DNA of 59,642 nucleotides, counting the filler. It is 6 parts of 6 records of this genome, joined end to end, with 100 filler letters (N's around TTAATTAATTAA, not from the genome) between each part and the next. Parts side by side here need not be neighbours in the genome. Positions count along the whole stretch, not along the records: positions 41,220 to 53,088 come from SRR31156797_883; 5 more parts are not named here. One strand, given 5' to 3'. Within the stretch, counting starts at the first letter, position 1. Each line of letters begins with the position of its first letter. Below, in pieces: positions 26,371 through 52,967 of the stretch. The notes under the pieces were generated by a model, which saw only the letters and a program-made list of their open reading frames with translations, had not been told where the DNA came from and did not search any database. The position numbers were made by a program, and so were the translations under genes.

Positions 26371-27237
26371 ATGATATATAAAAAATTGGGAAAGTCAGAC
26401 TTAAATGTGTCTGTATTAGGTTTTGGATGTTGGGCCACTGCAAAGCATGGCTGGAAAGATGTTAATCAAGAAGAAGCAATTAAAACTCTTGAAAAAGGAT
26501 ATGAAAACGGAATAAATTTCTTTGATACTGCTCCAATTTATGGTTTTGGAAAATCTGAAGAGATACTTGGAGAAGTCTTTGGCAGTGTGAGAAATAAAGT
26601 ATATATTGCAACCAAAGCTGGGCTTCGTTGGAATGATTATGGAAAGGTAACACATAATTTAAAGAAAGACAGTATTTTATTTGAAGTTGAAAATAGTTTG
26701 AAAAGACTAAAAACTGATTATATCGACCTGTATCAAATTCACTGGCCGGATAATCAAACTCCTATCGAAGAATCAGTAGAGGTTCTGCTTAAACTAAAAA
26801 AAGAGGGGATTATTAAAAACATTGGTGTTTCTAATTTCTCTTTAAATTTATTAAATAAAGTTAAAAATGAAATTGTCTCAACTCAGGACCAGTATAACAT
26901 GCTACAAAACTCTGTAGAAAACGAAATTTTGCCATTTTGTGACGAGAATAATTTAGGTTTTATAGCATATAGTCCACTGGCACAAGGTTTATTATCCGGA
27001 AAAGTTAAAAGAGACTATACTTTTGGAAAAGGTGATATTAGAAGATTCAATCAATTATTCAAAGACAAGAAACTATTTGATAAAATTGAAGCAATTGAGA
27101 AACCTCTTGTTAAAACATCTATGGAATATCTGTTAAAGAACAAAAATGTTACTTCTATTTTAACAAGTATGACAAAAGAAAAACACTTAATAGAAAACAT
27201 AAAAATAATTGAAAATTATATGAATAGCAAGATTTAA
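26371..27237 (+). CDS. Aldo/keto reductase
   Basis: FFDTAPIYG, ATKAG, DYIDLYQIHWP, IGVSNF, AYSPLAQG. Confidence 0.93.
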   Translation: MIYKKLGKSDLNVSVLGFGCWATAKHGWKDVNQEEAIKTLEKGYENGINFFDTAPIYGFGKSEEILGEVFGSVRNKVYIATKAGLRWNDYGKVTHNLKKDSILFEVENSLKRLKTDYIDLYQIHWPDNQTPIEESVEVLLKLKKEGIIKNIGVSNFSLNLLNKVKNEIVSTQDQYNMLQNSVENEILPFCDENNLGFIAYSPLAQGLLSGKVKRDYTFGKGDIRRFNQLFKDKKLFDKIEAIEKPLVKTSMEYLLKNKNVTSILTSMTKEKHLIENIKIIENYMNSKI

Positions 27238-27247
27238 TTTTACAAAA

Positions 27248-27283
27248 AATAACAAGATCCGCCGGATGGCGGATCCAGTTATT
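27248..27283. terminator. GC-rich hairpin after AKR (terminator or REP-like)
   Basis: AATAAC-aa-GATCCGCC-ggat-GGCGGATC-ca-GTTATT. Confidence 0.55.
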
Positions 27284-27307
27284 AAAGAGAAGTTAATAAA
27301 GGGATTA

Positions 27308-27407
27308 NNNNNNNNNNNNNNNNNNNNNNNNNNNNNNNNNNNNNNNNNNNNTTAATTAATTAANNNNNNNNNNNNNNNNNNNNNNNNNNNNNNNNNNNNN
27401 NNNNNNN
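27308..27407. other. Artificial contig linker
   Basis: Same N/TTAATTAATTAA/N linker. Confidence 0.98.
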
Positions 27408-27408
27408 A

Positions 27409-27501
27409 GTTCCTGGAACAGATAAAACTGTTAAAGTTCCTGCAACAACTGTAGCAAAATTCAAAGTTGGTAAAGCTTTAAAAGAAGCTGTAGCTAAGTA
27501 A
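27409..27501 (+). CDS. hup: HU family DNA-binding protein, 3' end (partial)
   Basis: Translates to VPGTDKTVKVPATTVAKFKVGKALKEAVAK*; not in the ORF track. Confidence 0.85.
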   Translation, partial: VPGTDKTVKVPATTVAKFKVGKALKEAVAK

Positions 27502-27524
27502 TTTTACTTTCTATTCAACTTATG

Positions 27525-27555
27525 AAGGGTTCATCTTCTGATGGACCCTTTTTTT
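27525..27555 (+). terminator. Terminator after hup
   Basis: AAGGGTTCATC-ttct-GATGGACCCTT plus T-run. Confidence 0.8.
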
Positions 27556-27689
27556 ATGCCTAAATTTCACTCTTTCTAAAAAATTATTTTATTTATTCTA
27601 TTTCTATTTTTACTCTTTTTTAATTTATCACTTCACACTTTTAAAATAACTTCTATTTTCATAAAAAATATTAAATTATATAGATATAT

Positions 27690-27741
27690 TATAGTTTTAT
27701 ATAAGTTTAATAATAGTTACTATATAGTTTTATATAAGTTT
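27690..27741 (+). repeat. 19-bp direct repeat x2
   Basis: TATAGTTTTATATAAGTTT at 27690-27708 and 27723-27741 (33-bp period), just upstream of ORF 27762. Confidence 0.7.
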
Positions 27742-27761
27742 TAATTAAAAAAGAAGTAAAA

Positions 27762-28697
27762 ATGAATGATAAAGAAAAGATTTTTAATGACTTAGTTTCA
27801 TGTTTAGATACTGAACACACCCTGTTTTCAAAGAAAGATAGATTCCTTCAAAACCTTAATTATGTAAAAAAACTATTATTTTCTGGATTATCAACTAAAA
27901 AACAAATAGAACTTTATTCAAAAGAGATTGAAGAGATTTCAAGAAGTGCCTATGAAAACTATTGTAAAAAATATTTAAAAGAAGAGTATGAAAAAGGTTT
28001 ATTGAATACCCTACTTTTTAGAAATATAAAATCTATTGCTCATTATTTAACACAAGAAGAGAAACCAACTTCAACTAAACTTTACAATATATTATTAGAA
28101 AGTGGTTCTTTAAAACAAGCTAGAAATAAAAAAGATTCATCAATTGATTATAAGACATTTGAAGAATTGCTAAAAGAGTTTTTAAAAAACAAAGGTTATG
28201 AAAACATAATAGAGTTTGATAAAGAAAAAACTCAAATAAATATAGAAAATACAAATGAAAGTACACCAGTTCAAAATACACAAGAAGAAGAAAAGGAAGT
28301 AAAAATTGAACTTGTAGATGGAACTTACAAATATTATGATAAAAATCTTTTAAAGACAGAGTTTATTGAGTTTGAAAATAGTTATATTGATAACAATATT
28401 AAAGAAACCAACGTTTACTATATTCAAGCAAGATATATAGATAAAGAGTATAGTTTTGAGAAATTTAAAGAAGTTATAAAAACTAATAATCTAATAGAAA
28501 ACTATTCAATTATAGTACACAATAATTCAAATGTTGATACAAGATTATATATTTATAGATTTATTGATAATAAACTTATTATGCTAAAAAGTCTTGATGC
28601 AGCCTCTTGTGTCTTTGAATTAGATGAACTAATAAGAAGAGGAAGAACAAACTTTTTTGAAAAACTAGATGAGCATATTCACTACATTACAAATTAA
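27762..28697 (+). CDS. Hypothetical protein, possible TraK/StbA-like DNA-binding N-terminus
   Basis: 311-aa ORF; family resemblance is by eye only. Confidence 0.6.
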   Translation: MNDKEKIFNDLVSCLDTEHTLFSKKDRFLQNLNYVKKLLFSGLSTKKQIELYSKEIEEISRSAYENYCKKYLKEEYEKGLLNTLLFRNIKSIAHYLTQEEKPTSTKLYNILLESGSLKQARNKKDSSIDYKTFEELLKEFLKNKGYENIIEFDKEKTQINIENTNESTPVQNTQEEEKEVKIELVDGTYKYYDKNLLKTEFIEFENSYIDNNIKETNVYYIQARYIDKEYSFEKFKEVIKTNNLIENYSIIVHNNSNVDTRLYIYRFIDNKLIMLKSLDAASCVFELDELIRRGRTNFFEKLDEHIHYITN

Positions 28698-28781
28698 CTT
28701 TAGATTAAATTTATAAATTTATTATATTTTTTACTTATTTTAATGATATTTCTTGTTATTATATTTAACAAGGAGTTTATT

Positions 28782-30902
28782 ATGTCTTATATTACTTCTA
28801 TTAGAAAAAACACTTTCCTTTTTTTACTTACTATAGGTATTATTAACACAGTTTTAGCAATCATCGTATTTTTATATATCCAAAACAAGCAAAATGAATT
28901 GCTTTATTACTCAAAACTAGATATTGCAAAAACTGAATTTAAAGAAACAAATAAAAAAATAAACTCTGAAATAATCCATTACAAGTTAGTTTTAAACACT
29001 ATTAAAGACAATAAAGACTTAATAAGATTTCTAAATGGTGAAAAAAATATCATAAAATATTTAAGTGAAGACCTAAGTGATTTTGTTAAAGCAAATGGAA
29101 ATATCTTTCAATTAAGATTTATCAATAAAGATGGAAATGAAATAATTAGAATTGATAAAGAGAATGGAATTACAATAATTGCTGAGAAATTACAGAACAA
29201 AGCTAAAAGATACTACTTTAAAAAAACTATGAATCTAAAGGAAGGAGAGTTTTATATCTCCAATTTTGATTTAAATATTGAACATGGGAAAATAGAGGTT
29301 CCTTTTAAACCTACAATTAGAATTTCTACACCAATATACAGAAATAATTCCTTTGAGGGAATTATTATTATAAATTTTTTAGCAAATGATTTAATTGCTA
29401 GTATTAAAGACAAAGAATCCTTTGATGTTTACTTCATGGACAATAAAAACAATTTTCTATTACACCCAGATGAAAACAAAAGTTGGAGTACACAAAGAGG
29501 AACAAACTATAAAGTAAAAGATGAAATACCAAATATATATAAACTAATAGAAAATGAAAATACTAAGGTTTCAGATAAAAAACTGCTTTATTATATAAAC
29601 TCTATTGATATAACGGATAATAAGTTTTATATAATCTATTCTATAAAAGAGCAATTATATGATGCCTATATAGAAGAAGCAACTAGAAATATAATTCTTT
29701 TCTTTGTTGTAATCTTTTTATTTTCTATTCCTTTTGTTTTCATAGGAGCATATTTCCAATCTATAAGAATGGAAATACTTGATAGATTAATTAATAATAT
29801 CCCCTTCCCTATCTGTTTAAAAGATAAAAATGGAGTATTTTTATTAGTAAATGAGTCATTAATTAAACTATATGGATGTACTTCAAAAAAACAACTTATT
29901 GGTAAAAAATCTTATGAGTTTACCCATAGAAGTCTTCCTTATACATCAAAAGAGAAAGACAATGATGTCTTAAAAAAACAAAAAATAAAATTTGTAGATA
30001 CAATAACACTTAAAAACAATAAAAAACTTTACTATGATACAAGAATTATAAAAATCTCTTTCTTTGGACTTTTTAATAAAACATATATTTTAGGTATAGC
30101 CATTGATATCACTGCAATGAAAACTCTTAATGAACAACTACAGAAAAAAGTAGATGAAGAATTAGAAAAAAGATTAGAAGCTGAAAGAATATTAGCACAA
30201 AAAGCTAAACTTGCAGAAATGGGAAATATGATTGATAATATAATTCATCAGTGGAAACAGCCACTAAGTATTATTAAAGTTACTTCACAAGCCCTTGAAA
30301 TGAACTTAGAAATGAAAAATCTATCAGAAGAACAAAGAGAATACTATATTAAAACTATTATAGAAAATGTAGACTTTATGAGTGATACGGCAAATGATTT
30401 TAGATCTTTTTTATCTCCTGATAAGATTAAAAGTGAATTTTCTATAAAAGACTGTACTAATAAGATTTTAAAAATCCTATTCTTACGCTTTAGAAAACAA
30501 AAAGTTGAAGTAATAAACAATGTTGAAGAAGATATTAGAATTTATGGATACAAAAGTGAATTATGCCAAGTGCTTTTAAATATTTTCAATAATGCCCTTG
30601 ATGAATTTAATGAAAAAAATAACACAGAAGATAGCAGTATTACAATAAGTACTTATAAAAAAGAAGGTTTAATAGTTATAGAAATTGAAGATACAGCTGG
30701 TGGAATCAAAGAAGAATATATAAATAAAATATTTGAAGATAGATTTACTACAAAAAACAATGAAGGAACAGGTATTGGATTGACAATATCAAAGAGAATT
30801 ATTCAAGAAAGTTTCAACGGTACAATCAAAGTAGAAAATAAAAATAAAGGAGCATGTTTCATCATAAAGCTTCCCCAAGAAGTCAACACTCTAGAAAACT
30901 AA
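28782..30902 (+). CDS. Cache-PAS sensor histidine kinase
   Basis: 2 TM, Cache (QNKAKRYYF, DLNIEHG), PAS, H-box IIHQWKQPL, N box, DTAGGI, GTGIGL; ATG 28782 with AGGAG. Confidence 0.9.
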   Translation: MSYITSIRKNTFLFLLTIGIINTVLAIIVFLYIQNKQNELLYYSKLDIAKTEFKETNKKINSEIIHYKLVLNTIKDNKDLIRFLNGEKNIIKYLSEDLSDFVKANGNIFQLRFINKDGNEIIRIDKENGITIIAEKLQNKAKRYYFKKTMNLKEGEFYISNFDLNIEHGKIEVPFKPTIRISTPIYRNNSFEGIIIINFLANDLIASIKDKESFDVYFMDNKNNFLLHPDENKSWSTQRGTNYKVKDEIPNIYKLIENENTKVSDKKLLYYINSIDITDNKFYIIYSIKEQLYDAYIEEATRNIILFFVVIFLFSIPFVFIGAYFQSIRMEILDRLINNIPFPICLKDKNGVFLLVNESLIKLYGCTSKKQLIGKKSYEFTHRSLPYTSKEKDNDVLKKQKIKFVDTITLKNNKKLYYDTRIIKISFFGLFNKTYILGIAIDITAMKTLNEQLQKKVDEELEKRLEAERILAQKAKLAEMGNMIDNIIHQWKQPLSIIKVTSQALEMNLEMKNLSEEQREYYIKTIIENVDFMSDTANDFRSFLSPDKIKSEFSIKDCTNKILKILFLRFRKQKVEVINNVEEDIRIYGYKSELCQVLLNIFNNALDEFNEKNNTEDSSITISTYKKEGLIVIEIEDTAGGIKEEYINKIFEDRFTTKNNEGTGIGLTISKRIIQESFNGTIKVENKNKGACFIIKLPQEVNTLEN

Positions 30903-31229
30903 AGTTTTTTCCATTAAGAATGGATAAGAGATATCAGCTTTACTACTTTTTTTAAAACCAAACTTTTTATAAAAAGATATAAGTTTTTCTAGATTTAAGC
31001 CATTTGAATCTAAAGGCAAAGGATTTAAATAAATCTTTTTATATTTACTCTGTTTTGAAATATATTTTAAAATACCTTTTAGGGTTTCAGTTCCATACTT
31101 TAGGTTTCTAAAAGCAGGTAGAGTTTTTATTATTTCTAAAGTCAATGTATCATTATCAATACTAACATTGCCAAATGAAATATCATTATTATTAAACAAC
31201 ATTTTATCTTTCTTTTTTAACACTTTCAT
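30891..31229 (-). CDS. Small GNAT family protein
   Basis: FRNLKYGT motif A and LISFYKKFGF; convergent with the kinase (12-bp overlap). Confidence 0.75.
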   Translation of the reverse strand: MKVLKKKDKMLFNNNDISFGNVSIDNDTLTLEIIKTLPAFRNLKYGTETLKGILKYISKQSKYKKIYLNPLPLDSNGLNLEKLISFYKKFGFKKSSKADISYPFLMEKTLVF

Positions 31230-42216: not shown

Positions 42217-42675
42217 TTATTCATTTAGCAAATCCTCAATAAATATATTATGCTCATAAAAATAGTCTGGGTCTTTATCTAATTTCCGGCTAATTATTTC
42301 AAAACCACCATTAGCATATTCATCAATAATTCTTGTAATATCATTACATTTCTCAATAAGCCCCATATCGTCTTGGATATTTTTATTAAACTTTCCGATT
42401 GCCATTACAATTAACGACTTTAAAATGTCAGGAGCTTGATTATTAATTACACTATACCTAAAAACATCAGAATCATAAGCTTCTGTTATTGGTTCACGCC
42501 TGTCATTAACAAAACCAATTATTGTTGCCCATGCAAAAGGTTGCCAGTATTGATTAAAGAATTTTCGGTCACCACCTTCCTCTGCCTGTTTTCTACTTAA
42601 CTTTTCAATAATTTTTTCCTTGTAATCTTTTCTGATTTTAGGACTATAAGAAATAATATCGTTAATTATGCTCAT
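42217..42675 (-). CDS. PbeD-like / dnd-associated small protein
   Basis: FAWATIIGF and DEYANGGFEII motifs; last gene after the ATPase. Confidence 0.7.
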   Translation of the reverse strand: MSIINDIISYSPKIRKDYKEKIIEKLSRKQAEEGGDRKFFNQYWQPFAWATIIGFVNDRREPITEAYDSDVFRYSVINNQAPDILKSLIVMAIGKFNKNIQDDMGLIEKCNDITRIIDEYANGGFEIISRKLDKDPDYFYEHNIFIEDLLNE

Positions 42676-42676
42676 A

Positions 42677-44830
42677 TTAAATGATTTTCTTTAAACTACT
42701 ATATGAATTTGATTCTGTTAAATCTGATGTTGCACCATCTTTTTCAATAATGTAAACATTTTTAAAATCAAACTCTTTTAATGAAGATTTATCTACAATG
42801 TTTTGACCGTCTTTATAAGTAAATAAATCTTTAGTCATCACAATGCTTTGCTCAAACTCTTCATCAAGAATTTTATAATACAGTTTTGTAGTACCATCAT
42901 CTAATGCGGATGTAGGTGCATCAGAAATAAAAGGATAGGATTTATTTTTATACTCGTTAGATATAAGAACAATAGCATTGATTATGCACATCTTCATAAG
43001 AGTAACATGACCTGTGTTTATATCACGATTGTTGTTTTCATTGTCTAAATCAATAAGTTTTATAATATAACTATCTCTATCAATTAATATCCTTCCATTG
43101 ATTACTTTGTTTGCTTTAGTTGTTTTAGCCAATATCTCATTTGCTTTATCTTCTATTCTAGTAATCAATTTATTAAACTCGGTTTCTTTGGTTTTGATAT
43201 AAATATCTTGAATTTCATATAAGTAAGTTAGAATCTTTTCTTCCTTATATTCTTTATTTGTTTTTGTTGGTATTTTATCTAATTCTTCCTTTTTACGCTT
43301 TAAATCCTGTTTGTGCCGATAAATATTATCATTTAAGTTTTTTATTTTGCTTTTGATAATATCCTTTTCTTTGATATTGTAATTGTACTTATTCTTCTCT
43401 AAAGAAAAACTATCGATTATTTTATTACCATGCTTTTCCTGAAGTAAAGTTATTTCATCATTTAGCTCATTGATTTTAGCCAAAATTTCATTTTTTCTGT
43501 TGTTAAGTTCCTTGTTTTTCTGAAGGTTATTAACGATATCTGATTTAATTGATTTAACCTTTGCTAGTAAAGTTGGTTTATTTGAAAGAATATCAACTAC
43601 TTTATTGTTAATTGCTAGCTGTTCTCTGTTTTTTTGTCTAAATTCTTCAATTTCACCAGTCGCTATTTTATATCTATTCTGTATATTTTTAAATGCATCA
43701 CTTTCTTTATCAAATTTTTCCCCACAAATATAGCATTCCAAATTGTCTAACATTTCTTTTAAATATTTTGGGTCTGGTATGTTATATGGAAGACCAGTAG
43801 GATTATTATTCTGATTTTCCTCAAACCACTTTTGGAAAGAGTGCAATTTATCAAAACCAGCATTCATTAATGCATCAGTTCCAAACAATACCCAATGTTT
43901 AGAGAATAAATTGCTTACATTTTTGTCATAAGACTCAATCTCTTCGAAAACAAATTTTCTTTCTCTCTCTAACCTGTCCTTTTTATTTTTTAATTCGATG
44001 AACTCATTAATATCGTCAAGCCTTTTGTCAATATCATCAATAACTTTTTCTATTTGTTGTAACTCTGTATTCGCATTATCTAAATTCTCCTGGAATTCGG
44101 GGAGCTTCCTTTCGAGATTGTCAATTTCATAGCTTATTCTATTAAACTCCCTTTCGTTAGAAGTATCTCTTTTTTTCTCCTTTCTTAAAGTCTTTTCAAT
44201 TTTATCAATTAATTGCTCAACAATCGTAATGTTTTTATCATAGTAGCCAATATATGAGATGTAGTTAATTGCATCTTTAAAAGACTTCCCATTACTTATA
44301 TCTATCAATTCATTTAAAGTCTCACCTTGAAACCAGATGTATTTACTTATTTCTTTTGGAAGAAGCTTTTTTACAATATAATCTCTCGCCTCAAAATGGT
44401 TGTCAATATTAATTCTGTTGCCTTCAGAATTATCGAATGAAACAATTAATTCCTCATTTAAGAATTGCCAATTCTTTTCTGAGTTGTAATCTTCGTCATT
44501 CTTTTTCTTGATTTCAAAACACCTACAAACAGTGTAGTCCTTATCACTTTTTACATTTAGTACAACTTCAGCTTTAACTTTGTTATTTTCTAATGCATCC
44601 TTTAAAGATTTCTTATTAAATATTGAAAGGAAGTTAGAAGAATCAATACTGCACCAACCGTTTTCAGTCCTGTATATTTCCCCAAAAAAGTTCCAATAAA
44701 ATGCATTAAATAATTTTGATTTGCCAGCACCGATTGTGCCTAATAATAAATTTAGGTTCTTATTTAAATTTATTGAACTTCGGTCAAAATATGATTGAAA
44801 GTTTTCAATAGTTATTTTAGTCAAATGCAT
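42677..44830 (-). CDS. PbeC-like SMC/Rad50-type ATPase
   Basis: ITIENFQSY, Walker A GTIGAGKS, FQGE Q-loop, coiled coils, CYICG hook, Walker B ISDAP. Confidence 0.85.
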   Translation of the reverse strand: MHLTKITIENFQSYFDRSSINLNKNLNLLLGTIGAGKSKLFNAFYWNFFGEIYRTENGWCSIDSSNFLSIFNKKSLKDALENNKVKAEVVLNVKSDKDYTVCRCFEIKKKNDEDYNSEKNWQFLNEELIVSFDNSEGNRINIDNHFEARDYIVKKLLPKEISKYIWFQGETLNELIDISNGKSFKDAINYISYIGYYDKNITIVEQLIDKIEKTLRKEKKRDTSNEREFNRISYEIDNLERKLPEFQENLDNANTELQQIEKVIDDIDKRLDDINEFIELKNKKDRLERERKFVFEEIESYDKNVSNLFSKHWVLFGTDALMNAGFDKLHSFQKWFEENQNNNPTGLPYNIPDPKYLKEMLDNLECYICGEKFDKESDAFKNIQNRYKIATGEIEEFRQKNREQLAINNKVVDILSNKPTLLAKVKSIKSDIVNNLQKNKELNNRKNEILAKINELNDEITLLQEKHGNKIIDSFSLEKNKYNYNIKEKDIIKSKIKNLNDNIYRHKQDLKRKKEELDKIPTKTNKEYKEEKILTYLYEIQDIYIKTKETEFNKLITRIEDKANEILAKTTKANKVINGRILIDRDSYIIKLIDLDNENNNRDINTGHVTLMKMCIINAIVLISNEYKNKSYPFISDAPTSALDDGTTKLYYKILDEEFEQSIVMTKDLFTYKDGQNIVDKSSLKEFDFKNVYIIEKDGATSDLTESNSYSSLKKII

Positions 44831-44839
44831 ATTCTAAAA

Positions 44840-45034
44840 TTATTTGGTAAATAAGTCGTAAAGTTTATTTTCAACATAGTTAATAGCGTCTCTGTCTGTT
44901 TTTTCATTATCAAATGCTCTTACAGATTGATAGACTATCAGCTTATTTATTTGACTAAGTTTTTTATTATCCAGGTTATCTTTTTCTTGAAACAAATTGC
45001 TTATTTCTTGAATGATTTTTTCCTCTATTTCCAT
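44840..45034 (-). CDS. PbeB-like small protein
   Basis: 64 aa between helicase and ATPase with 4- and 9-bp gaps; assigned by synteny. Confidence 0.6.
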   Translation of the reverse strand: MEIEEKIIQEISNLFQEKDNLDNKKLSQINKLIVYQSVRAFDNEKTDRDAINYVENKLYDLFTK

Positions 45035-45038
45035 ATCG

Positions 45039-47288
45039 TTATTGGTTACAAATATTGTCAATGTTCAAATTGTCTTCAATGAGAGAGATTAAATCGATAC
45101 TATATTTAATTGCAAGCTCGCCCAATTTCCCATTTAAGACCTGATGTCTATTTTCAGCTGCATAAAGAAAATTCGCTACTCTTCGTAATTCATTTTGGAA
45201 GATTCTAATCTCCATGTCTTTTAAATCCTGTGGGAGAGAATCAATAAAACTTTCTTGAGGGGCAACAATAATATCATAAATATTAGCATAGTTCTTACCT
45301 TCAGACTTTCTTAGTACACGACCTCTTCTTTGGATGTACTGTCTTGGATTGCCTGTACTTGCACAAAAAATTGCATTTTTTGTAACTGGTATATCAACAC
45401 CCTCATCTAAAATTTTCATAGCAAGTAGTACATCAATTTTTCCATTCGCAAATTGGTTAAGCACTCGTTCTCTATTGGGAGTACCTGATAATAATTCATG
45501 AGTCGAATACCCAAATGCCCTTATCGCTTCACCATATTTCCTAATCAATCTTCTTTCATCATTGTCATATGAGATTATATCTGCACTAGAAAAATCAGTA
45601 TCCTGACCTTCTGGAACATATACGAATGTGTATTTAAGATTCTTCTCCTTATTATTAACATCTATAAAAATATCTTGAAGAATTTTGATTTTATTTTCCG
45701 CTTTATTGATTATTCTTTTTCGTTCTATTAAAAGCCTTTTCCCATAATCATTAAATTCTCCTTTCTTTGAGTCATAATTAAGAATTAATTTTTCAGATAT
45801 TGTTTTGTAATCAATCAACTCTTCTTCGTTAAGAGAAGCAAAATAAGGATAGTAATAGTATTGAACTAAACTTGCATGTTCAGCATTTATCGCTTTATAC
45901 ATTGAGTATGAATAGGTATAACATGGAGGATATGAATTAAAATATTCATATATTTTGTCAGAGCCATAATCATCATAGATTCTTTCCGGGGTAGCAGATA
46001 AGCCTATTCTCTTGTTGATTTTACCTGGAAGGTTTTTTAAACTTTGAGATGCTCCCAAATTATGAGCTTCGTCCGCAATAAGTATAAAATTCTCCCAACC
46101 CTTTTTCTTAGAAAGTTTTCTAAATTTATTACCGTTGTAACTTTGATAAGTAGAAATGAATATCAAGCTATCATTTAATCCTAATTGTATATTTAAAAAA
46201 TGATTACTTAAGATGTTAAACCATTCCTTTTCTTGAGTTGAATGAATATTTTGAAAGTTAAACTTATTTACTTCACTAATCCACTGTGAAACTAAGGCTC
46301 TAGTGGGGACTAAAACTAATACATTATAGTTCCCAGATTTTTTAAATTCTTCAAGAACACAATTTAAAGATGTAATTGTCTTTCCTGTGCCAGTTGCCAT
46401 AGCAAAAATACCTTGGCAGTTATTTTTTGTCCAATTCTCGTAAGCTTTATTCTGATAATCTCTAGGACCTTGTGAGAATGGAAATTTTGGTGATAAATTC
46501 TTCTTGTTCAACTTGTTATGAATTTCAGCAACTTTTATTTTAATGCTTTCAGGATATTCCGATGATTCTTCACTTAATTCTTTCATCTCATCAAGTAAAT
46601 CAAATGAATTATTAACTGAGAATGAATCCCGAATGGTGGTTTTGACTTTACTTATAGGGATTATTTTAATGTTCTTAGCTTCACCAGTCCATGCTTTTAG
46701 AAATACATTTTCAAAATATTCTAGCCTTTCGGTGTCGCTCTTACTACTAGACCAAGATTTGTAACAGCTTATTGACTCAATATTATTTAGTAAAGCATTG
46801 CGTGAAAAATTGGCAGAGCCATTAAATACAACTTTATTATTTGCCTCGTCTGTAAATACTCCAAATTTGTTATGAGCAATTCCTCCTTTTTCATTTGATG
46901 GTATTGTCGCAATAAATTCAATTCTATTCTTTGAAATTAAATAAGATAAACATTTAAAAAAATGAGTATTGCGTTTTGAAAATGTTTTGGTTAATGTATT
47001 TAAGTCAGATAAAACATTTTTTTCTATCGTATCAACTTCATTTTTAATCCCCTTTTCAATAGCTTTTTTATCTTCAGGAGATAATACATCATTAATAATG
47101 ATTCTCATTTTGCCTCCCCGATGAATAAAATAAGCAAAACCAGCACTTAAAACATTTATCGCAGATGAACTAAAATAACCTAATCCCAAATCGAAACTTA
47201 TGCTTTCCATAAGAGCATCGAAGAAAAACTCAATGGGTTCGTTTTCTCCCGTGGAATAGACTATATGAAATGGGATGTCTTTTAGCAT
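45039..47288 (-). CDS. PbeA-like PLD-nuclease/SF2 helicase (phosphorothioation-associated restriction component)
   Basis: GYFSSS, PLD HNK...GSAN, MATGTGKT, DEAH, SAT, LDEGVDIP, QRRGRVLR. Confidence 0.88.
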   Translation of the reverse strand: MLKDIPFHIVYSTGENEPIEFFFDALMESISFDLGLGYFSSSAINVLSAGFAYFIHRGGKMRIIINDVLSPEDKKAIEKGIKNEVDTIEKNVLSDLNTLTKTFSKRNTHFFKCLSYLISKNRIEFIATIPSNEKGGIAHNKFGVFTDEANNKVVFNGSANFSRNALLNNIESISCYKSWSSSKSDTERLEYFENVFLKAWTGEAKNIKIIPISKVKTTIRDSFSVNNSFDLLDEMKELSEESSEYPESIKIKVAEIHNKLNKKNLSPKFPFSQGPRDYQNKAYENWTKNNCQGIFAMATGTGKTITSLNCVLEEFKKSGNYNVLVLVPTRALVSQWISEVNKFNFQNIHSTQEKEWFNILSNHFLNIQLGLNDSLIFISTYQSYNGNKFRKLSKKKGWENFILIADEAHNLGASQSLKNLPGKINKRIGLSATPERIYDDYGSDKIYEYFNSYPPCYTYSYSMYKAINAEHASLVQYYYYPYFASLNEEELIDYKTISEKLILNYDSKKGEFNDYGKRLLIERKRIINKAENKIKILQDIFIDVNNKEKNLKYTFVYVPEGQDTDFSSADIISYDNDERRLIRKYGEAIRAFGYSTHELLSGTPNRERVLNQFANGKIDVLLAMKILDEGVDIPVTKNAIFCASTGNPRQYIQRRGRVLRKSEGKNYANIYDIIVAPQESFIDSLPQDLKDMEIRIFQNELRRVANFLYAAENRHQVLNGKLGELAIKYSIDLISLIEDNLNIDNICNQ

Positions 47289-48643
47289 TAATTATCTTGT
47301 TCTTTAATGTTAATACTGTTCCATTCTTTGTATTCTTTTAGATATTTTTCTTTAAAAGTTTCCTCAAAAACAGAATATGATGTACAATCAAAGAATGAAA
47401 TTCCTTCAATAAATGCCTCTTTTATTTTAGAAATACTTCCAGCACTTCCTTGTCCACTAAATGGTTCTAGGTCAACGTTCTCTATTCCTTCTAAATATGA
47501 TTTTAAACTATCCTTATCCAATTTAATTAACTTGGCAGCATCTTTTTCAAATTTCTCAATAAAAAGTATTGGGAATAATAGTTGTAGAGCTTTAATCAAT
47601 GCAGCAACTCCCATTCCTTTAGATAAAATACTTTCATTTGGTTCATTCCAATCATCTCGTAGCTCTTTTACAGCATTAAAAAAGCGCATGATAAATTTTA
47701 CAATTTCAATTTGTAAATCTTTGTGTATGAAGTAATATAGGAAGCAAGGTTGGTATAAGCTATTGATCGACTTTTTGGATATTGTTTTAATTAATTCATC
47801 AATAATAAATGCTTGCGAAATAGAATATAAATAACGACCCTCTGCATTTTTAGGTATTTTGCCTAGCATTTTAATTCTATGGTGAAATGGACTCTTTTCA
47901 TATTCATTCAGAAGTCTAGTGAAATTGTGTAAAACAGTAATCTCATCAATTTCATCACTAAACTCACCCATCAGGTGATATAAAATAGATTTATTTACTG
48001 GTTTTTGTTCATAGTTAATTGTGTAAAATTGTTGGGCGACAATAGCTCGATCAAATCCAATGAATAGTGATAATAAGATTTCATATTCAAAATTATCATC
48101 ATTTTCAACAGTCTTAAAATACTCCTTTAATCCTTCTAATCTATGTTGCCCATCAATAACTAAAATTGACTTTCCAACGATAGGTATAAAAACGTGTTGC
48201 TTATTCTCTAATTGAACAAAATAAGAGGCAGTTGTACTTTCATTTCCTGAGTTTGAAGTTATGAAATCTCCAATTTCTTCATCTTCTGGTATTTCGATAC
48301 ATTCTATTGTACAGATAATTGTATTTGGGAAGAATGCATATTCATTAGTATTTATATAATCTTTAATCTTTTTTACCCGGCTTGTATCTTTATCCCTTTG
48401 AAAATCAGTTTGCTTTTTTTTATTCCTTACAATAGTATCATAATAGTCTTTTTCATCAATATTTTTCTCAGCTAATTCCGAATACTTCTTAATATCATAC
48501 TCAGCTGGACTCACAGTAAACATTTCTACTATCTGCTTCGCTGGTGCTTTTGCAATATGAAAAAAATGTTCTTTTTGATTTACTTTTATTATTTCTAATG
48601 AAAGAAAATTGACTCCATTTATATTTAATATTTTGCTATTCAT
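47288..48643 (-). CDS. DGQHR-domain (DndB-related) protein
   Basis: FQR, FPNTII, VIDGQHRL, FYTINYEQKPV. Confidence 0.9.
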   Translation of the reverse strand: MNSKILNINGVNFLSLEIIKVNQKEHFFHIAKAPAKQIVEMFTVSPAEYDIKKYSELAEKNIDEKDYYDTIVRNKKKQTDFQRDKDTSRVKKIKDYINTNEYAFFPNTIICTIECIEIPEDEEIGDFITSNSGNESTTASYFVQLENKQHVFIPIVGKSILVIDGQHRLEGLKEYFKTVENDDNFEYEILLSLFIGFDRAIVAQQFYTINYEQKPVNKSILYHLMGEFSDEIDEITVLHNFTRLLNEYEKSPFHHRIKMLGKIPKNAEGRYLYSISQAFIIDELIKTISKKSINSLYQPCFLYYFIHKDLQIEIVKFIMRFFNAVKELRDDWNEPNESILSKGMGVAALIKALQLLFPILFIEKFEKDAAKLIKLDKDSLKSYLEGIENVDLEPFSGQGSAGSISKIKEAFIEGISFFDCTSYSVFEETFKEKYLKEYKEWNSINIKEQDN

Positions 48644-49148
48644 CTTCTTCTTTTACTTTAATAAAAAACTCATTGTATGCATTAGTCTGCTTAATAGATT
48701 GTATCATTTTTTGCTGATGTTTCTTGTCACTTGAAATATCTTTATCAGCATTAGCAATTATCCAAATAATTATAGAAATAATAAAACCAGAAATAGCTGG
48801 GAGTAACGATATTGAACTACTTAATAAAACAGATAATGCAAATAAAATTAATACTATTAGTAGAGATAAAATTGCATAGACAATTAAACTTGCCCTATTA
48901 AGAAAACTATATGATAATTGCAGATCTATTGTAGAAGCAACAATTGTTGCAATAAAAAATGTAGATAAAGAAATTGATATGCTCTGAATATAACCAGAAG
49001 AAATTTTTAAAAGCGGAACAATCACTGCAATAGCAACTAATAATAACAATAATATGAATAAACCTATAAACACGGATTGTTTCCATGGTGTTGTGAGTTT
49101 ATCCTTAACCTCACTCCAAAAACTATTATTCTTTTTTTGCTTATCCAT
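48636..49148 (-). CDS. Uncharacterised 4-TM membrane protein
   Basis: Four hydrophobic segments, charged termini; 4-bp gap from dndE, 8-bp overlap with the DGQHR gene. Confidence 0.8.
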   Translation of the reverse strand: MDKQKKNNSFWSEVKDKLTTPWKQSVFIGLFILLLLLVAIAVIVPLLKISSGYIQSISISLSTFFIATIVASTIDLQLSYSFLNRASLIVYAILSLLIVLILFALSVLLSSSISLLPAISGFIISIIIWIIANADKDISSDKKHQQKMIQSIKQTNAYNEFFIKVKEEDE

Positions 49149-49152
49149 GCTA

Positions 49153-49545
49153 TTATATTTTATTTAATCCTTCTTCTATTTTTTCAATAACAAAATCAAA
49201 TCCATCCAAATTTGGGTTTTCTTCTAATTCTTCATTTATCAATTCTAAACCATCATCAATATGCATCTTGATATATTTCGGAATGTCCTTATCCGTTTTA
49301 TATAAACCATAATGAACACATGCCAAAGAAACATAATAAGGAAGGTTGTTGCCAAAAAGAACAGCCTTACTATATTCTTTGCCTTGTGAATTTTTTATTT
49401 CAGATAAATCCAAAATTCTTTCCCGAGACAATGAATATGTATATGCAATTCTGGCAATTATATTTTCAGTTCCCAGATTAAGTTTCCTGGTAAGTTTTGA
49501 TACCAGTTCCCGATTTTCTTTTGAGGTTTTAATGTGTGTGAACAT
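49153..49545 (-). CDS. dndE: DNA sulfur modification protein DndE
   Basis: ENIIARIAYTYSL, GKEY, HIDDGL; follows dndD. Confidence 0.85.
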   Translation of the reverse strand: MFTHIKTSKENRELVSKLTRKLNLGTENIIARIAYTYSLSRERILDLSEIKNSQGKEYSKAVLFGNNLPYYVSLACVHYGLYKTDKDIPKYIKMHIDDGLELINEELEENPNLDGFDFVIEKIEEGLNKI

Positions 49546-51616
49546 TACCAGTTTTTTCTATTTCGTTAAACAATTGAGAAGAATCGCATTTTGAAATTGT
49601 TGATTTGCCTTCTTTATTTTGGATAATAAAAGTCAATGCTGTGTTTGGTAACAGCATAGTATATTCTTTTTCCGTTAGTTCTTTCTCAAGAAGCGGAAAC
49701 AAAATGACTTGTTTAGATATTGAAGGATAAAATTCTGTAATAATATTTTTTGAATGACGCTTATCAAATTTTTGCAGAGGGCTATCAATGAATATTGGAA
49801 ATTGAATCCCAGATTCGTCAACTAATGATTTTAGTAAGGCTGTTGCATAAAGCTGTTGTTCTCCTTTTGATAAAGTTTCCTTTTCTATCAAATTGCCATT
49901 TTTGTCAAGTAAATGAATATCAATAATGTCTTCAGTTATTTCAACTAACACATCAGCAATAAAGTCTTCTTTATGCATTAGTCTTAATAATTCCTTTTTG
50001 ATACGTTTTTGTAATGAATGTTTCTTTTCTGATTTGAATTTCAAAATAAATTCAGAAAGCTCATCAATCAATCGACTTGTTACTTTATCTTTCTTATCAT
50101 CCATTTCATCCAGACTAACTGTTTTGGTTAATTCAGAAATCATTTTTGATTTTGTAGCCAGTTCTTGCTGATAAGCACCAATTTCCTCATGCAACTTATT
50201 TTGTTCTGAGATTAAATCAGTAATTCTACTATCAATTTTTGCTTTTTCAGATTTGTATTTTTTTGCTAGAATGTCAGAATCTTTTGATTCAGCATTAGCA
50301 ATTTTTTTCATTGTTTTAGCTAAGAAAATTCTATTATTTCTTTCTTCTTTGACTATCTGTTTGAATAGTATACTATATGAATGTTTCAAATTCTCATATA
50401 AGGATAGAAATTCATTCGATTGTTCTGATGTTAAGTCTAATAATATTTTGTCAATTCCAGTTTTTTGTCCTTCAAAATCTGAATGAAATGCCTCTGATAA
50501 GATGTTCGAAACGTCTTTTTTTATCATATCAGGAATTTTTTTAGCTTCTAGTTGTTTTTCAACAATACTATTTATCTTAATAAATCTCTGAATTATGAAA
50601 TCATTATCAATCTGTTTTTGTTTATTTTGAAGTTCTGCATTTACCTGCTGTTGAAGTTTCTTTGTCTTATTTCCTGCTATTGCAAATGGCGCAAGTTCTA
50701 ATAATTCTTTAAGTTTTGCTTTTACCTCAATACCTTGTTGTTTAAGTGTATCCCTCAATTTTTTTTGTCGAATTAAGTCGTCAACGGTCATACTGTTGCC
50801 TTCTCGAATTAATTTTTCTTGGTAATGTTCAGACTGATTCCTTGCTCTTTCGATCTCTCCACTATTAGTTGTAATTTTAGATTCATTATGAGCAATTAAT
50901 TTTTCTAGTTTAACTACTTCCTCTTGTAATTTATTTAGCTTGTTTCTATCAGTAAGGCTTGCTGACTTCTTCCTTAACTTAATTCTTAGATTTTCTAAAT
51001 TCCGTTTTAGGCTCTCATATTTGCTGATGCCTAATACTTCTGAATATGCTTTGCTTAAATTTCGCTTTTCATGTGTTGTTTTTATCTCAGCAAGTGAAAC
51101 AATTTTTTCAGCATCGAACAAAAAGAATTTAGCTATTTCTCTTGGTAAAATAAAGTCATTTATAAAAATATCAGAACCAACCTCTTTTGTGAGTTCATTC
51201 TCAAACCCATCAATTAAAATACTCGATTTTTCTTTTTCTTCATCTATGTTATATTCTCTTTTTATAATAATCTTTCGACAAGGAACTGATGGGATATAAA
51301 TATCTGATATTTCAATCTCAACACTAAATTCTTTTATTGCTTGGTCATTTGTTTTTACTTCTCTATTTAAAATTGAGTTTACGTATCTTTTATATCCTCC
51401 TGATTCGGAAATTTCCCTTTTGTATTTTTCATCTACTTCGGAAATGAGTTTCCCATAAAATCCCCAAACCAGTGCAGTTAGAAAAGTTGTTTTTCCAAAA
51501 CCATTTTGACCTGCAATGATTGTAATGTTTTTATTATCATAATCAGCGTTGAGAGCCAAATTATTTTGACCTTTGTAAATTCTGAAATTATTTAAAGATA
51601 TCCGATTAATCTTCAT
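49529..51616 (-). CDS. dndD: DNA sulfur modification protein DndD (SMC-like ATPase)
   Basis: NFRIYKG, GQNGFGKTT, FFLFDAEKI, LSKGEQQ, FIDSPLQKFD; start at ATG 51616. Confidence 0.95.
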   Translation of the reverse strand: MKINRISLNNFRIYKGQNNLALNADYDNKNITIIAGQNGFGKTTFLTALVWGFYGKLISEVDEKYKREISESGGYKRYVNSILNREVKTNDQAIKEFSVEIEISDIYIPSVPCRKIIIKREYNIDEEKEKSSILIDGFENELTKEVGSDIFINDFILPREIAKFFLFDAEKIVSLAEIKTTHEKRNLSKAYSEVLGISKYESLKRNLENLRIKLRKKSASLTDRNKLNKLQEEVVKLEKLIAHNESKITTNSGEIERARNQSEHYQEKLIREGNSMTVDDLIRQKKLRDTLKQQGIEVKAKLKELLELAPFAIAGNKTKKLQQQVNAELQNKQKQIDNDFIIQRFIKINSIVEKQLEAKKIPDMIKKDVSNILSEAFHSDFEGQKTGIDKILLDLTSEQSNEFLSLYENLKHSYSILFKQIVKEERNNRIFLAKTMKKIANAESKDSDILAKKYKSEKAKIDSRITDLISEQNKLHEEIGAYQQELATKSKMISELTKTVSLDEMDDKKDKVTSRLIDELSEFILKFKSEKKHSLQKRIKKELLRLMHKEDFIADVLVEITEDIIDIHLLDKNGNLIEKETLSKGEQQLYATALLKSLVDESGIQFPIFIDSPLQKFDKRHSKNIITEFYPSISKQVILFPLLEKELTEKEYTMLLPNTALTFIIQNKEGKSTISKCDSSQLFNEIEKTGNVHTH

Positions 51617-52967
51617 TTTCAACCTCCTTTTTAACAAAATCTTCAATCCTTTTTTCAATATCGTTTTGCAAACCGTAGCTTGTCAATAACAATGTTTTGC
51701 TGTGTTGAAGCGTAAGCAAATTGTTTATTAACTCATAGTCGGTTCTATTATTAGAGCAAACTGATTTTAAAAGTCGTTTTTCAATTGAGTTCTCAATATT
51801 TGCATTTTCTGTTTCAATATCTCTACCATAGATTTTTGCAAATATTTCACCCACTTTAAAATCGAATATTCCATCTCGATACCAGTAAACTTGTATTGCA
51901 ATTAGCTCTTGATTAGTAATTAATTCAGTTAATGGTTTTGTTTTTTGTATTTCTTTTTGAAGTTCAAGCAATTCTCTCAATTTTCTAGCTCTGTAGTGAG
52001 GTTCGTAGCTTCCTTGCCTATGTCCGTCTTCAGTAACAGCTCTTGTCCCATCTCGCCTCTTATCCATTCTGTTTTCAGAAATATTCCTTTCTTTTTCAAG
52101 GTTATCTCTAAAATTCAAAAGTGGGTCCATCCAATCTTCACCGTTCTTTATAAGAGCAGACATCGATTTATCTTCTTTAACTACAGTACACGTCCAGCAT
52201 CCAAACCGGCTTTGTCCACAAGAAGTATGGCTTTTATCTGTTACAACTGTAGGGCATTCATAATCGTCAGCACTGGCATTGGCATAAATTTGAAATAATT
52301 TTGAATTGTCATAATTCCAAGGTGAAGGTAAAGCATTAATGATGTACCAGATTTCTTCCAACATTAAGTCTTTAATAGGAGAATAAACAAGTGTATTATG
52401 ATGATTTGGATGCTTTGTTAAACGTTTTCCTTTAATTTCATATTTTTTAATAGAACGTGCTCTATTTGCACTTTCTGAACTTCTGGCACCAATTAAAATT
52501 ATTGCTTCTCCTTTTTCATCTACTTGTTCAGTAATAAATGATGATGTTGGTCTTATTTTCAATTTATCAGTACACCAACGAAATGAATTATTTGGTACTG
52601 GGTATCCTTTACCAAGTACATTTACCCAAAATGTTTCTTCAATTTTAGGTATTGTTTTTTCAACAAAAATTGGTAAATCTTGATCTCTGGCTTCCTTAGC
52701 TATTTTAGATAAAACATCATCAACATACTCTGAAATTATTGGATTTTCAACCATCGTATCATTGCAAACTACATAAACCTTTCTTCGCAATTGAAAGGGG
52801 AAAGGCATCTCTTTTTTAATTTTCTCTAATGCTTTCCAAACTAAGGTAAGTAAAACTGTTGAATCTTTTCCCCCGCTGAATCCAATAATCCAAGGCCTTT
52901 CACTTTTATCTCCATATGTATACTGGTCAACAAGTTCGTCAATAATATTTTCTATCCGTTTGTTCAT
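51606..52967 (-). CDS. dndC: DNA phosphorothioation sulfurtransferase DndC
   Basis: PWIIGFSGGKDS PP-loop, DTMVENP, FRWCTDKLKI, CGQSRFGCWTCTVV. Confidence 0.96.
   Translation of the reverse strand: MNKRIENIIDELVDQYTYGDKSERPWIIGFSGGKDSTVLLTLVWKALEKIKKEMPFPFQLRRKVYVVCNDTMVENPIISEYVDDVLSKIAKEARDQDLPIFVEKTIPKIEETFWVNVLGKGYPVPNNSFRWCTDKLKIRPTSSFITEQVDEKGEAIILIGARSSESANRARSIKKYEIKGKRLTKHPNHHNTLVYSPIKDLMLEEIWYIINALPSPWNYDNSKLFQIYANASADDYECPTVVTDKSHTSCGQSRFGCWTCTVVKEDKSMSALIKNGEDWMDPLLNFRDNLEKERNISENRMDKRRDGTRAVTEDGHRQGSYEPHYRARKLRELLELQKEIQKTKPLTELITNQELIAIQVYWYRDGIFDFKVGEIFAKIYGRDIETENANIENSIEKRLLKSVCSNNRTDYELINNLLTLQHSKTLLLTSYGLQNDIEKRIEDFVKKEVENED

Follow-up and report, generated by a model that had tools for sequence, protein, structure and literature searches.

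What function is served by two additional genes located in the middle of an operon that otherwise codes for DNA phosphorothioate (PT) modification and for restriction? The question was raised by a DNA window of 59,642 nucleotides (the whole stretch analysed, six records joined end to end), one piece of which contains nine head-to-tail open reading frames (ORFs) called on the minus strand from position 52967 to 42217. The genes form one operon in the order dndC-dndD-dndE-TM4-DGQHR gene-pbeA-pbeB-pbeC-pbeD, and the DndCDE-PbeABCD gene set was recognised in this order using PADLOC, NCBIfam and Pfam, with pbeB assigned by position only (Table 1). The two genes in question, TM4 and the DGQHR gene, lie between dndE and the PLD-helicase gene pbeA and encode a 170-aa membrane protein with four hydrophobic helices and a 451-aa protein with a DGQHR motif, respectively.

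The borders of both genes are very tight. The TAA stop codon of dndE is followed by four bases (TAGC) and the ATG of TM4, and the stop of TM4 overlaps the start of the DGQHR gene by eight bases (ATGAATAG), both junctions being read from the DNA. At the third junction, TAATG, the ATG of pbeA shares one base with the stop codon of the DGQHR gene. The original prediction, which had placed two extra genes between dndE and the PLD-helicase gene with a 4-bp gap, an 8-bp overlap and TAATG at their borders, was confirmed by the ORF calls and by the DNA. Its description of the products also held, as the four helices of the membrane protein were found in the hydropathy scan and in the AlphaFold2 (AF2) model, and the DGQHR protein passed the TIGR03187 and PF14072 cut-offs. 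The TM4 and DGQHR genes are real and translationally coupled. In the closest record, a contig of an Ignavibacteriaceae metagenome-assembled genome (MAG; L001), the gene order is identical and the DGQHR protein is 94% identical.

Scans of genomes and metagenome contigs revealed 83 loci with an orthologous DGQHR gene, which were grouped into 72 clusters at 95% identity. The 62 clusters with at least 480 bp of DNA upstream of the DGQHR gene were used as the pairing test set. In 61 of them, an abutting ORF on the same strand, at least 150 aa long and with at least three predicted transmembrane (TM) helices (3–5), ended at the DGQHR start, and in the 62nd cluster (L086) an ORF positive in the TM profile search overlapped an over-long DGQHR ORF call. 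The full-length TM ORFs found upstream of DGQHR genes comprised 157–244 aa. The distance between the TM stop and the DGQHR start was −4 in 22 clusters, −1 in 10 and −8 in 5, and it never exceeded +5 in the 62 clusters. In related loci, all 75 matches to the TM hidden Markov model (HMM) adjoined a DGQHR gene. Three kinds of other DGQHR proteins served as controls: an upstream ORF with at least three TM helices was present in none of 24 long forms (at least 600 aa, DndB-HEPN) and in none of 12 forms from viral contigs, and a TM neighbour was found for 3 of 11 intermediate forms. The TM-DGQHR pair is a conserved, obligate, co-inherited and translationally coupled module, specific to one DGQHR superclade, which bears out the earlier proposal of a distinct linked module. 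The two ORFs show conservation across phyla. Viral contigs and PLSDB plasmids yielded no orthologue, the best identity there being about 23–32% (28% for PLSDB).

The frequency of the module was assessed in an independent sample of Bacteroidota genomes, in which DndC was detected above the cut-off in 15 of 401. Sixteen DndC genomes were searched for DGQHR proteins, namely 14 with DndC above the cut-off (the genome at the centre of this analysis being excluded) and two just below it. A DGQHR-domain protein was identified in seven, as four divergent pairs of a small TM protein with a DGQHR protein and three other forms without a TM ORF, and the remaining nine contained none. The strict DGQHR clade was represented in 1 of the 401 genomes, namely the centre genome itself. 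In the four isolate genomes with dndCDE and the pair, the TM-linked DGQHR protein was in each case the only PF14072 match, and canonical DndB (TIGR03233) was detected above the cut-off in none of 301 sampled Bacteroidota genomes.

The DGQHR protein and its membrane partner

The DGQHR protein exceeded the cut-offs of TIGR03187 and of the Pfam DndB family PF14072 (Table 1), and its homologues of about 450 aa numbered 238 at E ≤ 0.001 among the candidates scored. The motif is located at residues 164–168. An alignment of 30 sequences contained 58 invariant columns, including D164, G165, Q166, H167 and R168 as well as F81, R83, P106 and N107, so the motif of the nucleotide site is kept in all 30 homologues. 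The AF2 model of the protein (predicted local distance difference test, pLDDT, 83.3) comprises two domains, an N-terminal ParB/Srx-like domain (residues about 20–215) and a helical C-terminal domain (residues 217–451). Comparison of residues ~25–215 using VIA-align gave PadC (Z 5.8), sulfiredoxin (Z 5.2), KorB (Z 4.3) and SspE (6jiv, Z 3.8). As these Z values are low, the protein was assigned to the ParB/Srx family on the basis of the Pfam/NCBIfam match. A Foldseek search of the PDB with the model returned nothing at E ≤ 0.001, with Noc structures among the top weak rows. For the C-terminal domain VIA-align gave weak helical matches and no clear structural one. No HEPN family was matched in Pfam, and no invariant Rx4-6H or R...H pair was present in the C-terminal half of the 30 sequences.

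The protein is not a canonical DndB, in agreement with the original prediction. No match to TIGR03233, a model that requires at least 328 bits, was obtained at E ≤ 0.01, the gene lies downstream of dndE, and none of five clade members tested against this model gave a match at E ≤ 0.001. Membership in TIGR04172 was rejected at 102.9 bits versus a cut-off of 450, with only the first ~290 residues aligned. Identity with DpdB (NF041060) was rejected at 64.9 bits versus a cut-off of 300, and no TGT domain was detected among the nine operon proteins. In PADLOC the protein matched DpdB (75 bits), the only model matched strongly, and PDC-M02B (E 0.0056), and no others. The separation from DndB and DpdB is based on curated HMM cut-offs. 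An E. coli record (H38) with a weak DGQHR match was considered as a DndB reference and dropped, being without annotation and with fragmented ORFs. A search of PDB sequences with the DGQHR profile gave a designed protein as the sole match (E 0.015), which was regarded as spurious. Two MAG contigs (L002:4512-5861 and L016:9953-11331) have an intact TM gene and a DGQHR gene broken into two ORFs, which may reflect decay or an assembly error.

DGQHR proteins encoded beside dnd/pbe genes, as in the window, are already curated in NCBIfam as TIGR04172 (DNA phosphorothioation-associated DGQHR protein 1), and the premise that a link between DGQHR proteins and dnd loci was new had been too strong. Two members, L145 and L146, reach 463.7 and 489.7 bits. 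In comparison with TIGR04172 proteins, the window protein is ~45 aa longer and 24–32% identical. On three alphaproteobacterial plasmids, each TIGR04172 gene is preceded, with a 4-bp overlap, by a polytopic TM ORF of 171–176 aa. This partner stands outside the curated family and is annotated as hypothetical, and the TM ORF of the Rhizobium phaseoli plasmid is homologous to the TM4 family (hhalign 95.5%, E 1.6e-8, 131 columns). No experimental work on TIGR04172 was found in the literature searched.

In TM4, the hydropathy scan and the AF2 secondary structure agree on four hydrophobic helices (residues 25–46, 53–79, 85–108 and 112–133), and an N-terminal helix (2–23) and a charged C-terminal helix (142–169) are also present. 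The AF2 model itself is of low confidence (pLDDT 55). Since both tails are Lys-rich, the positive-inside rule suggests an N-in/C-in topology with both termini in the cytoplasm. TM4 reached no curated cut-off in Pfam (three sub-threshold matches, E 0.0035–0.0061), it matched nothing in PADLOC v2.0 or NCBIfam, and only unnamed clusters, at 0.90–0.91, were found for it in the ESM Atlas. A word search revealed only three relatives, 45–98% identical.

Three subfamilies of TM proteins were distinguished, one of 167–170 aa to which TM4 belongs, one with a median of 174 aa and one of 220–244 aa. Profile-profile comparisons between the subfamilies gave no significant homology (TMa/TMb 72% over 36 columns; TMb/TMc 2%), and the features common to the TM proteins of the whole clade are position, size and architecture, not sequence. 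The TM subfamily tracks the DGQHR clades. A TMc-profile search in the 401 Bacteroidota genomes gave three marginal matches (two in 1019-aa frames and one in an 87-aa frame), with no true relatives among them. A complex prediction for the DGQHR protein with TM4 (score 0.14, mark 0.34) counts neither for nor against binding.

Companion modules across related loci

Neighbour profiles were built from the window and from recurrent neighbours and scored over the 72 clusters. The dndC, dndD or dndE genes were detected in 23 clusters, and dnd or pbeC/pbeD in 24. A gene of the radical S-adenosylmethionine (SAM) superfamily was present at any position in 33 clusters, in 26 of them immediately after the DGQHR gene, which agrees with the occurrence of the pair outside dnd loci that the original prediction had asked about in its proposed tabulation of neighbours. 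Both kinds of companion, dnd and radical SAM, were found together in one cluster, and neither dnd/pbe nor radical SAM in 16, nearly all of them short contigs. At least 5 kb on both sides was available for 18 clusters, each of which had dnd/pbe genes or a radical-SAM gene (cluster members taken together, counted by eye from the per-cluster table). Where the flanks suffice, the pair is always located beside a module of the DNA-modification type, either dnd/pbe or a radical-SAM enzyme.

The commonest context of the DGQHR clade is a trio of TM, DGQHR and radical-SAM genes (Table 1), which stay constant while the flanks vary. The radical-SAM protein has 465–536 aa when complete and an invariant CxxxCxxC motif. 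It scored 21–33 bits with the Pfam Radical_SAM model, two of the five proteins tested being above the cut-off, and no match was found in PADLOC, NCBIfam or PDB sequences.

In the PT-linked loci the position of the pair varies. It lies between dndE and pbeA in the window and in L001-L003, L040, L042 and L045, and behind pbeD in L059 and L062. In five other loci it follows dndE, with pbe divergent downstream (L004 and L013) or without pbe (L005, L054 and L068). The neighbours scanned in dnd-only loci such as L005 included no recognisable nuclease, and the pair was the only extra component seen there.

The inheritance of the pair was analysed in a quick IQ-TREE phylogeny of 63 rows, namely the window protein, three TIGR04172 proteins and one representative for each of the 59 clusters in which it reached 400 aa; the 13 clusters with shorter fragments were left out. 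The dnd/pbe-linked DGQHR proteins formed one clade of 25 rows with a Shimodaira–Hasegawa-like approximate likelihood ratio test (SH-aLRT) value of 92, and an inner clade of 24 rows had a value of 98. The radical-SAM-linked proteins were placed in other clades and the TIGR04172 proteins on a long separate branch. The single dnd/pbe-linked clade indicates that the pair was inherited with its partner system and not inserted repeatedly.

Several loci carry further genes. In L068, a dndCDE-TM-DGQHR locus without pbe, an Mrr_cat restriction endonuclease gene (L068:11359-12186) overlaps the end of the DGQHR gene. In Parapedobacter defluvii (L009) the order is pbeA-C-D, TM, DGQHR, a gene for a 965-aa protein and dndCDE, so that this HNH + STAND/NB-ARC NTPase + TPR protein (L009:11381-14278) is encoded between the pair and dndCDE. 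A fusion of DndE with a HerA/FtsK-like P-loop ATPase, 520–523 aa in total, was noted at L005:7682-9244, L047:458-2029 and L068:7746-9308 (the domain scan was made on the L005 protein only), and these three loci carry the long TM subfamily of 220–244 aa. At L012:60-7859, and in L060, L069 and L096, the pair faces divergent genes for a HATPase_c_3 protein, a radical-SAM protein and a 768-aa DndB-domain protein. As this relative has a C-terminal HEPN_Swt1 match in L012, loci of this type encode two different DGQHR proteins, the DndB-HEPN form and that of the pair. At L010:3668-10074 and L006:11971-17195 (= L055), the pair is followed by several ParB_N-like paralogues of ~350 aa, and these loci also contain genes for a 135-aa protein, an SNF2 helicase (ZorD/DpdE-like) and a radical-SAM protein. 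The L011 homologue of the ParB_N-like paralogue matched the PADLOC candidate PDC-M38A at 128 bits.

Possible roles of the pair

Tentatively, we favour the reading that the pair is a membrane-anchored nucleoside triphosphate (NTP) switch of the ParB/DndB class, acting as a sensor/effector arm linked to DNA modification. TM4 and the DGQHR protein would bind each other as one obligate two-protein module, in which the small four-helix partner would keep a DndB-class nucleotide-binding protein with a ParB/Srx fold at the cytoplasmic side of the membrane. Such a pair would constitute a third functional module beside DndCDE, responsible for PT modification, and PbeABCD, responsible for restriction, and would be neither a foreign insertion nor a classical DndB repressor. 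As in its relatives DpdB, SspE and ParB, NTP might control dimerisation of the DGQHR protein on DNA, and the protein might read the modification state of DNA near the membrane and signal to or through its TM partner. As the output, incoming unmodified DNA could be held or intercepted at the envelope, as by KwaA/KwaB of Kiwa, or the membrane could be opened as a last resort, as by RexAB. The logic would be that of SspE, with a membrane protein substituting for its nuclease domain. The sensor/effector arm is favoured because neither a repressor nor a loader would readily be expected to need an obligate polytopic partner, because the radical-SAM trio behaves as a self-contained cassette, because the pair is the only extra component seen in some dnd-only loci, and because there are precedents in SspE, a ParB-like PT-sensing effector, and in Kiwa, a complex of membrane and cytosolic proteins. 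With a trio that is self-contained while its flanks vary, the pair would have to do more than regulate transcription.

Known systems resemble the pair in different respects. In the RexAB system of phage lambda, a DNA-sensing partner triggers RexB, a small channel with four TM helices, and Noc is a ParB-family CTP switch tying DNA to the membrane through a helix of its own. No homology of RexAB to the window pair was demonstrated, and Noc works without a separate TM protein, unlike the window pair. Kiwa is similar in arrangement, with a gene for a small membrane protein followed by a gene for a cytosolic protein, and its products are a membrane-embedded defence complex, described in the available part of the Kiwa paper as a membrane supercomplex of KwaA tetramers and KwaB dimers. 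There is no sequence relation to it (no PADLOC Kwa match for either protein), and Kiwa is not linked to DNA modification. In SspE, a PT-sensing NTPase-nickase with a weak fold match to the N-terminal part of the window protein (Z 3.8), a ParB-like NTPase domain acts as a PT-dependent effector; the NTPase senses PT and requires a DGQQR motif (PMC10164549, available in part). SspE has a C-terminal nuclease domain, whereas the window protein has no recognisable one and pairs with a TM protein.

The nearest characterised relatives are DpdB and DndB. DpdB, the ParB-like ATPase of the 7-deazaguanine Dpd system, has a similar two-domain build, with a ParB-like N-terminal and a helical C-terminal part, and its gene also lies beside that of a DNA-modifying enzyme. 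According to the parts of the report available, DpdB carries DGQQR, has no membrane partner and is a dimeric, DNA-stimulated ATPase that powers DpdA (PMC10164549). DndB (TIGR03233) shares with the window protein the DGQHR motif, a ParB-superfamily domain and the location of its gene in a dnd locus. Its gene lies upstream of dndC, whereas the window gene follows dndE (dndE or pbeD in related loci), and of the two only the window protein has an obligate membrane partner. In the portions available of the respective papers, DndB is described as repressing dndBCDE and limiting the PT level (He et al. 2015, PMC4507180), and haloarchaeal DndCDEA systems as working without DndB (Xiong et al. 2019, PMC6459918).

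Several points weigh against a sensor/effector arm. The physical interaction of TM4 with the DGQHR protein is inferred, and all members are known from sequence alone. The known relatives encoded beside modification genes act on the modification side, as far as the accessible texts on DndB (PMC4507180) and DpdB (PMC10164549) go. No nuclease, HEPN or other effector motif was recognised in the C-terminal domain of the DGQHR protein. No residue is conserved across the three TM subfamilies, between which homology is not demonstrable, so there is no sign of a conserved channel or pore, and anchoring may be all that the TM protein does. A TMb-profile search restricted to longer proteins, which is weak evidence, revealed no fusion of a TM with a DGQHR protein. 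Finally, the lack of a DGQHR protein in 9 of the 16 DndC genomes means that the module is optional.

The main rival explanation, possible if doubtful, is that the DGQHR protein is a governor or helper of modification in the manner of DndB and DpdB, its NTP use limiting or targeting DndCDE or loading the modifying enzyme on DNA. It would play the same role for the radical-SAM enzyme in the sister clades, and the TM protein would merely tether or sequester it. This is how the nearest characterised relatives act in the parts of the reports available (DndB, PMC4507180; DpdB, PMC10164549), and the constant companion of the pair is indeed a modification-type enzyme, DndC or the CxxxCxxC radical-SAM protein, with the DGQHR clades in the tree following the kind of modification partner. 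The DGQHR protein could also fill the slot of DndB, being the sole PF14072 match in 4/4 isolate genomes with dndCDE and the pair, and canonical DndB was absent above the cut-off from the 301 Bacteroidota genomes. However, such a role leaves the coupled polytopic partner, obligate in 61–62 of 62 clusters and absent from both DndB and DpdB, unexplained; it also has to accommodate a gene placed after dndE, or after pbeD (L059, L062), away from the promoter, and a protein that failed the curated DndB and DpdB models. Moreover, DndCDE works without a DGQHR protein in many genomes (the nine of 16 here, and the haloarchaeal DndCDEA systems in the text available of PMC6459918), and a three-gene cassette spreading on its own would be modification-only. 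Compared with this governor, it appears less likely still that the small-TM and DGQHR pair is the sensor/effector core of an undescribed membrane-anchored, modification-based immune family. Such a family would comprise a PT branch, reading the PT set by DndCDE and in the window acting as a second restriction layer beside PbeABCD, and a larger, self-contained radical-SAM three-gene branch, with the membrane protein intercepting incoming DNA at the envelope or killing the infected cell. The product of the radical-SAM trio would be either a new DNA mark dependent on radical SAM or an antiviral nucleotide.

A role for the pair in sensing or regulating PbeABCD and not Dnd, as an accessory of the Pbe (CxC ABC ATPase) restriction module, is quite improbable. 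The direct TAATG coupling to pbeA in the window fits such a role, as do the location of pbeA directly downstream in L001, L002, L003, L040, L042, L045 and L174, the TIGR04172 pair of the Pontibrevibacter plasmid, which faces pbeDCBA with no dndC annotated within the 7-kb flanks, and two loci (L048, L063) in which pbeA/pbeC are followed by the pair with no dnd genes in the available DNA. Against this, dndCDE and the pair occur without pbe within 10 kb on both sides in L005, and no pbe was found in the available DNA of L054 and L068. Furthermore, only L051 among the 33 radical-SAM clusters (of 72) has pbe-like genes beyond an isolated match to a PbeA-type helicase, and the position of pbe relative to the pair varies between before, after and divergent. 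The original prediction had left the choice between a separate sensing and membrane-effector arm, with abortive infection as a candidate role, and a stand-alone two-gene defence system using the slot as a hotspot; the separate, linked module was upheld, and the stand-alone system was not. The clustering of defence genes and the existence of small pairs of a TM protein and a sensor, together with the failure of the TM protein to match any family, would suit an unrelated self-sufficient system, or chance ORFs, in a permissive slot between the operon halves. This explanation is nevertheless very improbable, as a partner module accompanied the pair in every cluster with flanks long enough for the test (18/18), the dnd/pbe-linked DGQHR proteins group in a single clade (25 rows, SH-aLRT 92), both ORFs are conserved across phyla, and viral contigs and PLSDB plasmids contain no orthologue (best 23–32% identity).

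The role of DndB-class proteins in PT systems is disputed: in the part available of their paper, Rakesh, Aravind and Krishnan (2024, PMC10853773) leave open whether they act as repressor, NTPase, nuclease or backup effector. The literature compared also included Makarova et al. 2013 (PMC3632139), ProPhylo (PMC3226654) and the BREX survey (PMC12839542), each available in part. Neither a membrane partner of a DndB-like protein nor a DGQHR-radical-SAM cassette was described in the literature searched, although supplementary tables and the 2020 ABC-ATPase survey may list such neighbours. What is new relative to the literature searched is the membrane partner of a DndB-class accessory, whereas DGQHR proteins beside dnd genes were already known from TIGR04172. 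A whole DndB-class clade with an obligate membrane partner, switching between DndCDE and radical-SAM companions, offers a clean experimental handle on the role of this class. Control of the PT level would make the pair a membrane-tied regulator of a new kind, and control of the outcome of infection would give PT systems a membrane-linked arm absent from the literature searched. The TM-DGQHR-radical-SAM cassette may be a new modification or defence system.

Genes of the operon and flanking regions

The features of the operon are listed in Table 1 together with the three-gene cassette found in related loci.

Table 1. Genes of the dnd-pbe operon in the window and the radical-SAM trio of related loci.
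Feature	Product or description	Position	Strand	Evidence
dndC	PT sulfurtransferase, first gene of the operon	51606..52967	-	TIGR03183 421.8 bits (cut-off 290.4); PADLOC DndC 474 bits
dndD	ABC-type ATPase	49529..51658	-	TIGR03185 243.2 bits (cut-off 245.85, just under)
dndE		49153..49545	-	Pfam DndE 83.9 bits (cut-off 25)
TM4	170 aa, upstream gene of the pair	48636..49148	-	ORF call; hydropathy; above no family cut-off
DGQHR gene	DGQHR protein, 451 aa	47288..48643	-	TIGR03187 127.4 bits (cut-off 58.85); PF14072 38.2 bits (cut-off 29.1)
pbeA	PLD/HKD nuclease fused to SF2 helicase	45039..47288	-	PADLOC PbeA 807.5 bits
pbeB-like	small protein, 73 aa as called	44840..45061	-	assigned by position; no family match
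pbeC-like	coiled-coil ABC ATPase	42677..44830	-	PADLOC PbeC 148.8 bits
pbeD / dnd_assoc_4	DndE cognate of the Pbe module, last gene	42217..42675	-	TIGR04062 36.3 bits (below cut-off 74.25)
TM-DGQHR-radical-SAM trio	DGQHR protein ~455 aa	L080:9456-13000; also L081, L084, L091, L064, L073, others

Besides the model given in Table 1, the dndD product matched PADLOC DndD (277 bits) and the PADLOC PbeC model (468 bits). As the DndD family alignments start only at residue 15 of the called ORF, the true start of dndD is probably the ATG at 51616 and the TTG at 51658 an over-call. PbeA gave 388.7 bits with TIGR04095, under the cut-off of 600, and matched PLDc_2, ResIII and Helicase_C in Pfam. A homologue of the pbeB-like ORF is present in L002, and pbeD homologues were found in related loci. 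The PbeC-like ATPase contains a CYIC motif in the middle of the protein, the place at which Rakesh et al. (PMC10853773, in the part available) put a Cys-based Zn hook.

A scan of the operon for sigma-70 promoters and terminators gave counts equal to those of shuffled sequences. The operon is flanked by ordinary chromosomal genes, encoding DnaX_C-domain, HEAT-repeat and GGDEF proteins on one side and DUF4412 and FIST proteins on the other, with Rnf, flagellin and histidine kinase genes further away. The region 27001–31000 of the window has a G+C content of 21–26%, compared with about 30–40% elsewhere, and contains, adjoining a flagellin gene, an ORF of 311 aa that matched no family and a gene for a Cache/PAS histidine kinase.

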